The translations under genes and the position numbers were made by a program. A model generated the notes under the pieces. It was given only the letters and a program-made list of their open reading frames with translations. It made no database searches and was not told the origin of the DNA. DNA of 10,082 bases. Source: Atribacterota bacterium. Lineage in GTDB: Bacteria > Atribacterota > Phoenicimicrobiia > Phoenicimicrobiales > Phoenicimicrobiaceae. The stretch lies in assembly GCA_038203565.1 (NCBI GenBank), contig JBBRDV010000052.1, positions 1-10,082 of the forward strand. Direction: 5' to 3'. Every line of letters begins with the position of its first letter. The first letter of the stretch is position 1. Shown here piece by piece: positions 3,473 through 8,790 of the stretch.

Positions 3473-4609
3473 ATGGGACAATCGCCATCTTCAAATTTTT
3501 ATAATGAAGAAGGAAAAGGATTACCTTTTTTCCAAGGAGTTACTGATTTTAGTTATAAATATCCTAATGAAACTTTTTGGACAACCGTAGCTCCTAAAAA
3601 AGCTGAAATCAATGATGTTTTGTTTTCAGTTCGGGCACCAGTTGGCGATGTAAATATTGCAAATAAAAAATGCTGCATTGGTAGAGGTATTGCAGCTATT
3701 AGATCAAAAACAAATCAAATAGATTATTTATTAAAATATGAAAGTATAAAAATTCAAAGATTAGGGACTGGTGCTGTTTATGATGCTATAAAAAAAAGTG
3801 ACTTAGAAAATATTCTTCTAAATATTTTTGAAGATCCGAATTCACAATTTCAAGTTGGAAGTTTACTTGTTTTATATGACGACCTCATCGATACCAACTG
3901 CCGGCGGATACAGCTTTTGGAAGAAGTGGCGCGGCTTTTTTTCCGTGAATGGTTTGTGTATTTCCGCTTTCCGGGACATGAAAAAGTGAAATTAGTTGAT
4001 GGTGATGGAAGTAAAATACCTTCAGATTGGGATTATTTACCGTTTGCAAAGATAAAGATATTTAAGAAAGCTCCACTTGGTGTGCTAGTATTTACTGATA
4101 TCCGTCAATATTATCAAACTTCAGAAATAGATGGCACGACTATTACCGGGGATGGAGAAGAAGTTGATTATGAGAACAGACCAAGTCGGGCAAATATAGC
4201 ACCAGCAATTAATACAGTATATTTCGCAAAAATGAAGGATACAAATAAGGTCTTGTATTTTAACAAGGGAAATTCTTTTTTGCTTGAAAAAATATTGTTA
4301 TCAACCGGGATGGTTGGATTTACTACAGACGAAAAATATTTAGGCTTCTTGTTTAGTCTTTTGAAATCTTACGAATTTGTTCAATATAAAAATAATTTTG
4401 CAACAGGAGCCACACAGGTGTCTCTTAATAATGCCAGTTTAAAAAAAATCAAAGTGTTATTTCCTAAATTGAATTTAGTAGAGTTGTATTCTGAGATTGT
4501 TAATCCTTTACTTGAAAAATGCTCTCTATTAAAAAACCAAAACCAAAAACTTGCCCAAGCGCGGGATTTATTATTGCCGCGGCTGATGAGCGGCGAGATT
4601 GAGGTATAA
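3473..4609 (+). CDS. hsdS: Type I R-M specificity subunit HsdS, probably 5'-truncated
   Basis: TRD1 motifs MGQSP, LPFFQG, SVRAPVG, CIGRGIAAIR; central conserved spacer YDDLIDTNCRRIQLLEEVARLFFREWFVYFRFPGHE..IPSDW; second TRD; C-terminal LAQARDLLLPRLMSGEIEV. It starts at MGQSP, normally an internal motif, and has no obvious SD. Confidence 0.88.
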   Translation: MGQSPSSNFYNEEGKGLPFFQGVTDFSYKYPNETFWTTVAPKKAEINDVLFSVRAPVGDVNIANKKCCIGRGIAAIRSKTNQIDYLLKYESIKIQRLGTGAVYDAIKKSDLENILLNIFEDPNSQFQVGSLLVLYDDLIDTNCRRIQLLEEVARLFFREWFVYFRFPGHEKVKLVDGDGSKIPSDWDYLPFAKIKIFKKAPLGVLVFTDIRQYYQTSEIDGTTITGDGEEVDYENRPSRANIAPAINTVYFAKMKDTNKVLYFNKGNSFLLEKILLSTGMVGFTTDEKYLGFLFSLLKSYEFVQYKNNFATGATQVSLNNASLKKIKVLFPKLNLVELYSEIVNPLLEKCSLLKNQNQKLAQARDLLLPRLMSGEIEV

Positions 4610-4612
4610 ATT

Positions 4613-5650
4613 ATGAAAAAGAATAAACAAATTGTTCTACAAAACAGCTTTACGGAATTTTTACTCTACACTACGCCAAACGGCAAGGTGAAAGTGGAGA
4701 TATTTTTGCGCGATGAAAATGTCTGGCTTACACAAGCAAAGATTGCTGAACTATTCGATATAGATCGCTCCGTTATCACCAAACACCTCAAAAATATCTT
4801 TGAAAGCGGCGAATTGCAGGAAGATTCAGTATGTGCAAATTTTGCACATACTGCCGCGGACGGCAAGACCTATCAAACAAAATTTTATAATCTCGATGCT
4901 ATAATATCTGTAGGCTATCGGGTAAATTCGCAGAGAGCTACACATTTCCGTATATGGGCTACACAGGTGCTCAAAGAGTATATTATTAAGGGCTTTGCCA
5001 TGGATGACGAACGGCTGAAAAATCCCAACAACATTTTCGGCAAAGATTATTTTGAAGAGCAACTGGCGCGCATCCGTGATATTCGCTCAAGCGAACGTAG
5101 ATTTTATCAGAAGATCACCGATATTTATGCGCAGTGCAGCGCCGACTATGATCCGAACGAATCAATCACCAAACAATTTTTTGCCACCGTGCAGAACAAA
5201 CTTCATTTTGCAATTTCCGGCCAACCGGCGGCAGAAATTATTTACCAAAGAACCAGTAGTAAAAAAACAAATATGGGCTTAACTACTTGGAAAAATACAC
5301 CTAAAGAAGCTATTAGAAAAACCGATGTAAGTATCGCCAAAAATTATCTGGATGAAAAAGAATTGAACCTGCTCAATCGGATTGTAACCATGTACCTTGA
5401 TTATGCCGAAATGCAAGCACAAAAAGGTATTGTGATGTACATGAAGGATTGGGTAGCCAAGCTTGATGCTTTTCTGCGATTTAATGAAGAGGATATCTTG
5501 CAGGACAGTGGCAAGGTTGGCCATGATGTAGCGGTCGCTTTAGCGGAGAAGGAATATGAAAAGTATCGGGTTATTCAAGATCGCCTAATAGAATCCGATT
5601 TTGACCGGGAAGTTAAAAAATTGCTTAATTCAAAGAAGAAGAAAATATGA
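4613..5650 (+). CDS. rhuM: Virulence RhuM-family putative DNA-binding protein, intact
   Basis: 345 aa; WLTQAKIAELF..ITKHLKNIFESGEL (HTH-like), YNLDAIISVGYRVNS.RAT.FR.WAT..LKEYIIKGFAMDDERLK, RIRDIRSSERRFYQKITDIYA, FFATVQNKLHFA, C-terminal SDFD. GAGGT SD at 4601-4605. Confidence 0.9.
   Translation: MKKNKQIVLQNSFTEFLLYTTPNGKVKVEIFLRDENVWLTQAKIAELFDIDRSVITKHLKNIFESGELQEDSVCANFAHTAADGKTYQTKFYNLDAIISVGYRVNSQRATHFRIWATQVLKEYIIKGFAMDDERLKNPNNIFGKDYFEEQLARIRDIRSSERRFYQKITDIYAQCSADYDPNESITKQFFATVQNKLHFAISGQPAAEIIYQRTSSKKTNMGLTTWKNTPKEAIRKTDVSIAKNYLDEKELNLLNRIVTMYLDYAEMQAQKGIVMYMKDWVAKLDAFLRFNEEDILQDSGKVGHDVAVALAEKEYEKYRVIQDRLIESDFDREVKKLLNSKKKKI
4827..4853. repeat. Perfect 27-bp palindrome inside the rhuM-like CDS
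   Basis: CAGTATGTGCAAA-T-TTTGCACATACTG: the 13-bp arms are exact reverse complements around a 1-nt centre. Confidence 0.97.
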
Positions 5651-8030
5651 AGTATTTAAACGAAGACACTTTAGTTCAAAAAACCACTACCGATTACTTA
5701 AAAAGTAGTCTTAGTTGGAATTCGGTATATGCCCATAACCAGGAAACCTTTGGCCCGAATGGCCTATTGGGCAGAAATTCCGACCGTGAGGTGGTGCTCA
5801 CGCGTTACCTCAAGCAAGCCCTTAAAAAATTTAATCCCCATCTTCCTGAAACCACCTACGATGAAGGCGTACGTCAATTGGTGGATATGGAAACTCTTCT
5901 GAAGGGTATTTGCGACCAGAAAAATTTCATGGATATCTTCGAAAACTTCATTGTCTATGACGATTCCAGCGGTAAACAAATAAAAGTGCTGGCGAAAAAT
6001 CACCAGTATCTGGGTGTTAATCAAGTTATTAAAGCCCTGAATGACCCCCAAAGAGTTAAAGGAAAACTCGGCGTTTTCTGGCATACGCAAGGTGCCGGGA
6101 AAAGTTATTCCATGGTGTTTTTTACTACCAAGGTGCACCGTAAAATAGGCGGCAATTATACTTTCTTAATCTGCACTGATCGTGATGATCTGGATACCCA
6201 AATATATAAAACCTTTGCCGGATGCGGTGTGGCCGATAACGACAGAACACCCTGCCGGCCCAGCAGCGGCAGACATTTAGCAGAACTCATGAGTCAACGA
6301 AAGGCCTATGTTTTTACCACTATTCAAAAATTCAATCAAGAAGTTGACCCGGATGAAGGCTACACCAGGCGAGATGACATTATTGTGATCACCGACGAAG
6401 CGCACCGCACTCAATACGGCACTCTTGCCTTAAATATGCGCAATGCCTTACCAAAGGCTAACTTTATTGGGTTTACGGGAACACCGTTATTTAAAGATGA
6501 TCAGATTACAATGCAAGTCTTTGGTGATTATGTTTCCACTTATGACTTTCAGCGGTCAGTAGAAGATAAATCTACCGTACCGCTCTATTACGATTCACGA
6601 GGCGATACTCTGGGCGTAGCCACCAACGATATCAATGAGCGGATTGCCGAAAAATTGGAAGAAATTGAAATTAATGATATCGATGTTAGTCAGCGGTTGG
6701 AAAGAGAGCTGAAGCGCGAGTATCACATCATCACTGCCGAAAAACGTCTTAATCAAATTGCCAGAGATTTTGTCCAGCACTATACCACTTCTTGGGAGGC
6801 CGGCAAGGCGATGTTAGTGTGCATTGATAAATTAACCTGTGTGCGGATGTATGAATTGATCAGGCAATACTGGGATCAAAAAGCAGAGGAAGTCAGAGAA
6901 TCCTGGAACATGGCGGCGGGAGAAAAGAGGGAGCATTTTTCTAATCAACTTATCTGGATGAAAGGAACCAAGATGGCAGTAATTGTGTGCGAAGAGCAGG
7001 GCGAGGTAGATAAGTTTAGAAAATGGGGTTTCGATATTATACCCCATCGGCGACTTATTAAGCATGGCTTTGAACTCTCCGATGGAACGCGAATTGATGT
7101 AGATTCTGCTTTTAAGAAAGATGGACATCCCTTTAGAATTGCCATAGTTGCGCGATGTGGCTCACTGGGTTTGATGTACCGAGTTTGGCAAACCTTTATT
7201 TGGACAAGCCACTCAAAGCCCATACCCTGATGCAGGCGATTGCCCGCGCCAACCGAGTGAACGGCGATAAAAACAATGGTCTGATTATCGATTATTGCGG
7301 CATCCTCAAGAATTTACGCAAAGCACTGGCAACCTTTACCGGTACAGCTGATACTGGCAGAATAGGCGGAGGCGGCCTGAGGCCGGGTGAATTGGATCCA
7401 ACCAGAACCAAAGAAGAATTACTCGAGAATCTTAGGGAAACGATTAGTTTAGTAAGTGATTTTCTCAATGAGCGAAAAGCGCCGCTTGAAGCAATCATCA
7501 ATACTAGCGGATTTGAGAGAAATAAGGCGATCGTCGCGGCTAAAGAAGCGGTGAACGAAAATGATGAAACCAGAAAGAAGTTTGAAGTCATGTGCCGTGA
7601 AGTATTTATTAAATTTAAAGCGTGTCTCACCATTCCCGGAATAAATGCTTATCATAACCAATACAACGCGATAAATATTATCTACAAAAGTTTACAAAAA
7701 GACATTGAACGAGCAGATATCAGCGATATCATTAAAATGTTGCATAAAATTATTGATGAGTCGATTACCGTGAAGCAGGACAAAGGCAAAGAACCCAACA
7801 AGTCATAGAAAGAAAAATTGAAGGGTCTGTATAAGTGGCAGGATAGAGAGCCTACAAGAGATGGTGTAAAGGTTCTAATTCAAAATTTCTTGTGGGATGA
7901 AAAAACCGGGTTACCTGTAGAGTATTACACTCAAAAGGATGTATATAAAAAAACCGAAGCCGTTTTTTATCATGTATTTCGTGCATACCCGACGGTGCCT
8001 TCACCGTACTATGCCTCAGTAGCAAGTTAG
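5647..8030 (+). pseudogene. hsdR: Type I R-M restriction subunit HsdR, disrupted
   Basis: Three ORF pieces (5647..7230, 7155..7808, 7818..8030). Walker [49 protein letters not shown]-terminal AYPTVPSPYY. Frameshift near 7149, in-frame TAG at 7806-7808, and no PD-(D/E)xK nuclease motif before Walker A. Start overlaps the rhuM stop (ATGA). Confidence 0.9.
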
Positions 8031-8183
8031 GGAGTGGTATAGGGGAGTACATCCCATTTTTTTCTAATTAATATTTAACTTTTTAAATTAGATAGATAGG
8101 GGAAGCTCCCTGACGGGAATGTCATAAGGAAGGTTCTATTGACAATCTAAAAGAAGCGCAGAAATCAGAATTTATTACTCTAT

Positions 8184-8618
8184 GAAACCCTTATTATACA
8201 AGGCTTTCCTGAGCATGACAGGAGGCGGTTTTGTGATTAAAAAGGAGAAAAATAGAGGAACAGGAAAGTTTATTTAGCCAAGTAAAGGATATATAGAATT
8301 AGAGGATTATCAGTTTTTGTAGCAAAAAACAGTAGAGCTCTAAAATGTAGAAAACATAAGGGTTTCCGCGTTTTTTTGTTATATAGGATGTTGGCGAAAC
8401 TTCTAAAATACGAAGAAAATAAGACAAAAAGGGCTAAAAACGCTATTTTTAGGAGCTTGAAAGCCTTGCAAAATAAGGGTTTCAACGAAATATCGCCGTA
8501 GCTGCGTTTCTTGAGGTTGCCTGGAGTGATTTGTCCTATTTTTTAAAATAGGCGCTTAAAAGGGCTTAGAATAGCTTATTTTCGATGTAAGTGGAAAGCC
8601 TTATTTTATAAGGGTTTG
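8184..8618. repeat. Array of 25-bp imperfect palindromes GAAAGCCTT-N7-AAGGGTTT(C/G)
   Basis: 8184-8208 GAAACCCTTATTATACAAGGCTTTC (inverted copy); 8459-8483 GAAAGCCTTGCAAAATAAGGGTTTC; 8594-8618 GAAAGCCTTATTTTATAAGGGTTTG; half copy ATAAGGGTTTC at 8356-8366. Confidence 0.85.
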
Positions 8619-8790
8619 AGTGAGGTTAAATTTGAAAGTATTATAAAAAAAGAAGGATTTTAAGAGTTTTGTAGAATAGGTATAAACAGTATTATAATTA
8701 AAAAGATAATTTACGATTTCAAAGCAATATATAGAAGAAAAAAGTAATAGAATTTTATTAATAATAAAGGGAGGCAGGTCAAGTATTTAT

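Follow-up and report, generated by a model that had tools for sequence, protein, structure and literature searches.

A perfect palindrome within the rhuM coding sequence as a putative self-encoded DNA site of the RhuM protein

The 27-bp palindrome within the rhuM gene described here is real and under selection, and it is most likely a cognate site that RhuM encodes for itself. We consider it very likely that RhuM binds its own site, given how closely the site covaries with the protein's recognition helix. The fuller reading, which we favor with moderate confidence, has RhuM recognizing the palindrome as its cognate double-stranded DNA site, which is kept within the protein's own gene as an in-cis check that marks self. 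As for the role of the site in self-immunity or as a decoy, we lean toward it, if only slightly. No description of a RhuM palindrome was found among the matches listed in our literature searches, in which subscription journals were thinly covered and "rhum" was swamped by French rheumatology.

The features of the window (the whole 10,082-nucleotide stretch of DNA that was analysed) are as follows, with positions d counted outward from the palindrome centre.

3473..4609, + strand: type I hsdS-like gene (context), PF01420
4613..5650, + strand: rhuM / PDC-S05 gene, 345 aa, sitting between hsdS and hsdR
5647..7808, + strand: type I hsdR (context), split over two frames, 5647-7230 and 7155-7808
4724..4933, + strand: MerR/Xis-like winged-helix domain, residues 38-107, from the AF2 model
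4760..4795, + strand: codons of residues 50-61, spanning the turn and the N-terminal portion of the putative recognition helix, residues from which the inner word can be predicted
5030..5590, + strand: all-helical C-terminal domain, residues 140-326, the presumed effector
4827..4853, no strand: the complete palindrome of 27 bp, putatively the cognate double-stranded DNA target of a RhuM dimer, also coding S72-A81
4827..4830, + strand: left outer arm (d13-d10), whose type tracks wing type (residues 83-90), not the helix
4833..4837, + strand: left inner half-site GTGCA at d7-d3, a specificity word that varies with residues 51-57 of the helix
4838..4842, no strand: 5-bp A/T spacer (AATTT here), found in both orientations among homologues
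4843..4847, + strand: right inner half-site TGCAC, read from the sequence, 10 bp centre-to-centre from the left half-site, or one helical turn
4850..4853, + strand: right outer arm, coding the turn into the wing hairpin

The window protein matched Virulence_RhuM (PF13310) with an E value of 3.6e-111 and 370.9 bits (cut-off 33.7), and the PADLOC model PDC-S05 (PDLC04851) at 1e-150 over residues 4-343. NCBIfam and PHROGs gave weak matches only (anti-repressor Ant, E 0.0017), and no solved relative was found by sequence. The family has been linked to phage defence: the accessible text of one report describes another member, a PDC-S05/RhuM gene, that cut T7 and T5 plating ~1000-fold in E. coli (10.1101/2024.09.26.614923), and the parts available of a second state that RhuM genes are enriched next to invertible R-M genes (PMC9881135). 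The main text of a third (10.1101/2024.01.29.577857) contains no definition of PDC-S05.

Some further features of this genome are worth recording. The hsdR gene (5647-7808) seems to be shortened internally near residue 78, and there is no hsdM in the window; next to an intact rhuM, the type I R-M locus thus appears to be in decay. An AT-rich gap ahead of an aldo/keto reductase gene holds three related arms, 26-32 bp long and both inverted and direct (8178-8209, 8459-8486, and 8591-8624). Elsewhere in the same genome (L082; G000:C183, centre 2048) lies a second RhuM N-domain, apparently part of a frameshifted RhuM-Fic gene, with a site that differs from the window's: its word is TTGCA, matching its own helix.

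The earlier note on this DNA had reported a flawless palindrome with 13-bp arms, and we recovered it exactly, at 4827-4853 (+215 to +241 of rhuM) with its centre (+228) at T4840, the third base of codon N76 in the 345-aa open reading frame at 4613-5650. It is indeed the longest perfect inverted repeat in the window (loop up to 10), with the runner-up arm reaching 8 bp, and it does encode SVCANFAHTA (S72-A81), with AVCAKFAHTE read from the minus-strand frame at 4666-4866. An arm of 13 bp was reached in 1 of 300 simulated windows (order-2 Markov). The peptide SVCANFAHTA by itself fixes at least 8 pairs, and 525 of 200,000 synonymous recodings (0.26%) pair at 13/13. The absence of a second copy held for the genome as well as the window, as GTGCA-N5-TGCAC occurs once in 1.97 Mb; this count is not informative about avoidance of the site by the host genome, given a median of 1 occurrence across all 1024 words.

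To place the palindrome in its family, we collected loci from viruses (80), genomes (80), and metagenomes (80), along with the second RhuM domain of the same genome. The resulting 242 sequences, including the window, gave 240 mappable sequences and 180 distinct 41-mers; two loci without an N-terminus (L063 and L148) and L081, which is the window itself, were left out of the mapping. Homologues do carry other palindromes at the same spot, as the earlier note had suggested, and their symmetry is shown here to be under selection across the RhuM family. Among the 180 distinct sites, d3-7 and d10-12 paired in 94-99%, with several pair types per position (174, 176, 178, 175, and 179 sites at d3-d7, and 169, 177, and 178 at d10-d12). 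Pairing was laxer at d8 (121 of 180), d9 (136), and d13 (123), leaving d8 and d9 unpaired in 33% and 24%. Codon-level scoring, the check proposed in the earlier note, showed that palindromy itself is maintained: mean pairing over d3-12 was 9.24, compared to 6.19 for synonymous recoding, with the observed value higher in 179/180. The pairs at third codon positions (d3, d6, and d12) were formed in 97-99% of sites vs. 25-31% expected from the peptide, and d8 showed no excess (67% vs. 75%). The palindrome centre scored 9.2 of 10 pairs; when 1860 candidate centres along the gene were scored, the runner-up reached 5.65.

The form of the symmetry is informative as well. Strict half-sites one turn apart, an A/T spacer, lax positions, and a strict flank are the typical pattern of an operator for a helix-turn-helix (HTH) dimer. 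By this analogy, the RhuM site would be built like a dimer operator: its half-sites measure 5 bp each, the spacer between them is also 5 bp long and mostly A/T, and the flanks are conserved. On the coding strand, mismatches across 248 sites comprised 25 G.T, 44 A.C, and 74 others, and this lack of a G-U bias argues that the element is DNA rather than an mRNA stem. Spacers among the 63 TTCC-type sites read AAAAT in 32 and ATTTT in 25, with intermediates never seen. Spacer flips probably occur, if rarely; spacer orientation mostly followed word class, so flips seem to be an infrequent by-product. The arms were unchanged in close relatives at 96% and 92% identity, and a relative at 92% had the opposite centre base.

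Strong evidence that the site belongs to the protein comes from its covariation with the recognition helix. In a set of 127 sequences at <85% identity (L150, L041, and partial sequences left out), excess mutual information of the inner bases (d3-d8) peaked at residues 51-57, reaching up to 1.27 bit. The residues that predict the inner word are D51, R52, S53, V54, T56, and K57 in the window protein, with information shared between R52 and d7, S53 and d5-6, and V54 and K57 and d3-5. The buried helix positions 55, 58, and 59 carried little or no signal. Residues 51-57 shared at most 0.11 bit with the left outer arm, even though this arm sits physically between the helix and the inner word. The outer arm instead followed wing residues 83-90, a link that may be plain linkage, with the right outer arm coding the first wing residues. 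The earlier note had placed variable specificity in the wing encoded by the palindrome; our data assign it to the helix, whose codons precede the centre by 60-75 nt.

The same pattern emerged from disjoint sister pairs. On a C-terminal tree (residues 95-330), the helix differed in 49/50 pairs where the word differed and in 5/13 where it was the same (p 3e-6); on an N-domain tree with helix and palindrome removed, the corresponding fractions were 38/39 vs. 10/24 (p 6e-7), and those for K57 against d4-d3 were 28/34 vs. 3/29 (p 7e-9). Also on the N-domain tree, p stayed above 0.1 for control residues A45, E46, and G66. However, a fourth control, S65, reached 0.012 against d4-d3, which counts against the coupling. 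Helix and outer arm were not significantly associated in sister pairs (p 0.16 and 0.56). The helix and site module turns over fast, with at least 71 word changes on the C-terminal tree and at least 59 on the N-domain tree (126 sequences; ~89 when shuffled).

Words could also be predicted from the helix. For this, we added 125 viral loci, 30 loci from the same phylum, and pattern hits, giving 25 words, and removed three stop-laden false motif hits from the 271 rows. When each word was left out in turn and features were picked within each fold, 4.08 of 5 inner bases were right, compared to 2.34 without helix residues and a class-permuted mean of 1.81 (maximum 2.30, 33 runs). This nested value is the one to trust, as an earlier cross-validation at 4.40/5 had picked features on overlapping data. 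Since unseen words are predictable from the helix, the code is combinatorial. A change from E57 or L57 to Y57 accompanies G to A at d3 in five word backgrounds. The code is a poor fit for TTAAG and TTAGG, two words with a single member each. Close linkage allows helix and site to move as one block, and part of the covariation reflects shared ancestry; the synonymous-site control for such linkage is weak because those sites are saturated. Still, the covariation strongly supports one option raised in the earlier note, that of a site for the protein within its own gene.

Several alleles in which the palindrome had moved separate the site from the peptide. In seven short-wing genes, it was displaced by -1 or +8 nt into another reading frame and coded an unrelated peptide, and it matched the word predicted from the helix at 5/5 bases in three genes, 4/5 in three, and 3/5 in one. 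One gene, L426, retained both the window's helix and the GTGCA word. In an allele of phage WO of Wolbachia, the internal site had decayed in its right arm, and a cognate TTTCC-N5-GGAAA with RhuM-type outer arms lay 203-262 bp upstream of the start (L363, L365, L367, L368, and AB036666.1 gp8). This relocation was probably one event, and the upstream site was absent from the sister WO allele with an intact internal site (L364, L366, and HQ906663.1). Together, the frame-shifted palindromes and the WO relocation indicate that the site is needed in cis and the peptide is not. Among close relatives, there was one mismatched helix and site pair, L445, in a gene with a stop in the helix.

Structural models point to a winged-helix fold and a homodimer. 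The AlphaFold (AF2) model has helices at 41-48 and 52-65 and hairpin strands at 74-80 and 86-93, the first of these wing strands being the one coded by the palindrome. Residues 38-107 aligned with pSK1 Par (8csh; Z 7.4, rmsd 2.3, 53 aligned), and 8u1j was matched at Z 7.5 (rmsd 4.0, 97 aligned). Deinococcus DdrC ranked first among fold matches, at middling scores, whether the full model or a separately folded C-terminal domain was compared; the C-terminal domain paired with the DdrC C-terminal bundle (Z 6.3, rmsd 2.7, 85 aligned). Structure comparison of the C-terminal domain gave no clear enzyme fold and no nuclease or recombinase fold; there was no viral fold match, and the ESM Atlas held nothing above 0.78 for the C-terminal part. 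Modeling supports a RhuM homodimer: the model scored 0.77 against 0.02 for the best control, with contact agreement of at least 91% and pLDDT of at least 79, at a mark reached by 20/30 solved pairs and 1/23 single chains. Residues 38-64 and 69-93, comprising most of the helix and the wing, fell outside the listed dimer interface.

RhuM-type sites also occur without the gene. We searched viral contigs with two site patterns and two composition-matched control palindromes. One site pattern hit 74 times in 45 distinct contexts and the other 62 times in 44, and the controls gave 0 and 0. Long rhuM matches accounted for 27 and 18 contexts and fragments for 6 and 3, leaving 12 and 23 (35 in all) with no RhuM profile match once the palindrome was masked. 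About 10 of these 35 orphans were judged by eye to be tiny rhuM scars, and two (L291 and L303) may be chance matches within ordinary genes; others were intergenic or within unrelated phage genes. One phage contig (L477, 574-716) carried three RhuM-type palindromes with different words in a single gene beside a lysis-type gene, and another locus (L309) had two in one gap. A single prophage family ran from an intact gene (L243) through truncations with two palindromes (L244 and L246) to a bare site (L310). In the truncations (L244 1475-1795 and L246 1381-1533), two different rhuM alleles had each been cut after the YNLDAI codons, and a 5-nt microhomology joins both to one and the same further palindrome, which lies ~81 bp from the allele's own. 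Many scars ended at palindrome edges, and the retention of lone sites could be a by-product of recombination there.

Cellular rhuM loci showed a related pattern, with 16 extra sites in 12 of 152 loci, compared to 0-1 for 12 control word sets. All 16 had a word unlike that of the main gene; seven were in intact second RhuM domains, three in broken ones, and six had no helix. A second cognate site near the gene was found in 0 of 196 loci (1.06 expected); in L507, a second cognate site lay 428 bp from the site of an intact gene. Some neighboring palindromes are noted separately. Beside a rhuM scar, around position 717 of L311, a DinD-like gene contains a perfect palindrome with an even centre. 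In L098 (+1132) and L207 (+1094 from the rhuM site), further palindromes whose outer arms are similar follow shortly after rhuM. A lone RhuM-type palindrome with another word sits in L236, at -296 from the rhuM site, immediately after the 3' end of an hsdS-like frame.

Much of this evidence could also be produced by plain negative autoregulation, in which RhuM on the same site acts only as a transcription roadblock at +228 that limits its own expression and that of the downstream hsdR, and the orphan sites are neutral turnover debris. The same coupling of helix and site would be expected, and the classic operator anatomy, the single site per locus, and the relocation of the WO site to an upstream region all fit. 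A promoter scan showed no excess (6 found vs. 8.1 expected) and no promoter-like match overlapping the internal palindrome; because the gene is embedded in an operon without such an excess, an internal operator would allow regulation wherever the gene lands. However, autoregulation leaves unexplained the sites in unrelated phage genes, the side-by-side specificities in L477 and L309, and the pace of word change on both trees. In WO, more than 200 bp separate the upstream site from the start, and none of the promoter-like matches overlaps it. We therefore regard autoregulation as possible, if rather unlikely.

Explanations that dispense with a sequence-reading regulator fare worse. RhuM or a recruited partner might break or synapse DNA at the palindrome, making it a target for recombination or allele replacement that swaps modules and leaves scars. 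The many scars that stop at palindrome edges and the microhomology joint of L244 and L246 would fit, as would the best fold match of both the whole protein and its C-terminal domain, DdrC, which is described in the available text of PMC11347143 as a dimer that traps DNA breaks. Yet the DdrC match is of middling quality, the fold searches turned up neither a nuclease nor a recombinase, contigs from four sediment runs showed no joint at the palindrome among the rows listed, and selection keeping the site would leave the same scars, making this an improbable account. Another option in the earlier note is a self-templated cassette with no protein reader, in which the arms would stay symmetric, and the wing peptide would vary, through template switching. 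It draws on the two spacer orientations without intermediates, which suggest flips, and on the opposite centre base of a relative at 92%. Homogenisation of the arms would not spare d8, though, and a cassette cannot explain a word predicted from a helix 60 nt away, frame-shifted palindromes whose word still follows the helix, or a site outside the gene. Arms were also the same in the 96% and 92% relatives, and flips are rare given how far spacer orientation follows word class. No variant in 4827-4853 appeared among the rows listed for contigs of the four sediment runs (69 further rows lay beyond the list), a weak test since contigs drop rare variants. We disfavor the cassette as very improbable. 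An mRNA hairpin acting as a translation pause or stability element would fit the stable RNA folding of the region (z -4.7), which is as expected for any perfect palindrome. But mismatches lacked the G-U bias of such a stem, and neither helix-tied sequence specificity nor upstream relocation would be expected; this option of the earlier note was not supported, and we give it hardly any credence.

The reading that we favor, a cognate site kept in the reader's own gene as a mark of self, would work as follows. Each monomer of a RhuM homodimer would set its recognition helix on one of the two 5-bp half-sites, which lie 10 bp from each other, and the wings would probably rest on the outer arms. Residues 52 and 56 would specify d7, residue 53 d6-d5, residue 54 d5-d4, and residue 57 (with 51 and 54) d4-d3, providing at least 25 specificity words on one scaffold. 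Because the helix codons and the site lie within ~75 nt, they would travel together and could re-match after each change. The site would dock RhuM on the DNA that carries its gene, through sequestration and/or a transcription roadblock, such that this DNA counts as self, as with aba and BstA. Losing the site before the protein would be costly, and phages would gain from carrying sites as decoys, which could drive the turnover of specificities. Against an aba-like role, the accessible text of PMC8585504 reports that a single chromosomal aba copy failed to suppress BstA. More broadly, and more tentatively, RhuM could be the prototype of a widespread class of immune or addiction modules that consist of one gene and use a palindrome in its codons as a DNA antitoxin. 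A combinatorial code from helix to base would then provide orthogonal self tags by the dozen that phages gather, singly or in short arrays and even in frame, as DNA-only decoys. The same design may extend to the DinD, DUF1016, and Bro-N families.

If this is correct, a common and poorly understood family long labelled "virulence RhuM" gains a testable mechanism, and each member gains a predicted DNA site and a predicted route of phage escape. The 25 words on one small winged-helix scaffold would constitute a natural residue-to-base code for studying protein-DNA co-evolution and orthogonal binder-site pairs. Lone phage copies, if decoys, would be DNA-only anti-defence elements that are invisible to gene-based annotation. 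With a defined site, it also becomes possible to address how aba-type elements silence their proteins.

Several known systems resemble RhuM in part. Lambdoid repressors and the C proteins of R-M systems bind as dimers to two half-sites one turn apart around an A/T spacer, and their helices and operators have co-evolved into orthogonal groups. RhuM is similar in its dyad of half-sites one turn apart that covary with the recognition helix, but its site lies in the reader's own codons beside those of the helix, and it is a candidate defence effector, rather than a known regulator, with lone sites in phages. The MerR/Xis-like proteins pSK1 Par, RacA, BldC, and DdrC share the fold of RhuM residues 38-107, though with scores below 8 and ~9% identity, and we know of none among them that encodes its own site. 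DdrC resembles RhuM further in combining a winged HTH with a helical bundle in a dimer architecture; however, it senses breaks, not a sequence, according to the available text of PMC11347143. The accessible parts of PMC6649704 describe inverted repeats within functional coding sequence in Nematomorpha mitochondria, but these are numerous, up to 284 bp long, and in conserved protein regions, whereas RhuM has one short site per gene, at a fixed codon and linked to the helix that would read DNA. Protein variants matched to cognate short DNA motifs are also seen in Ssn nucleases and their NTS/SRM repeats; as presented in the parts available of PMC11893778, Ssn is a GIY-YIG single-stranded DNA nuclease, and NTS occurs in N. 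meningitidis in hundreds of copies around genes. By contrast, RhuM has no GIY-YIG domain and one site in the genome.

BstA and its aba element form a close parallel. In the available text of Owen et al. 2021 (PMC8585504), BstA is a phage-defence protein encoded by a single gene; its N-terminal domain is of the HTH type, and its short cognate DNA element overlaps the coding sequence of BstA itself. BstA variants have non-interchangeable aba elements, much as the 25 RhuM words track the helix. The two elements differ in form: aba is 63 bp over the start codon with terminal direct repeats ("palindrom" gave 0 hits in that paper), while the RhuM site is a 27-bp inverted repeat at +215 to +241 that codes a wing strand and follows a residue-to-base code. 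Immunity was shown for aba in that text, and for the RhuM site it is inferred. The BstA model was absent among the PADLOC matches listed (25 of 40, 11 of 11, and 25 of 42). RhuM works like BstA and aba or like an intragenic operator, and by the form of its element it does not belong to the BstA family.
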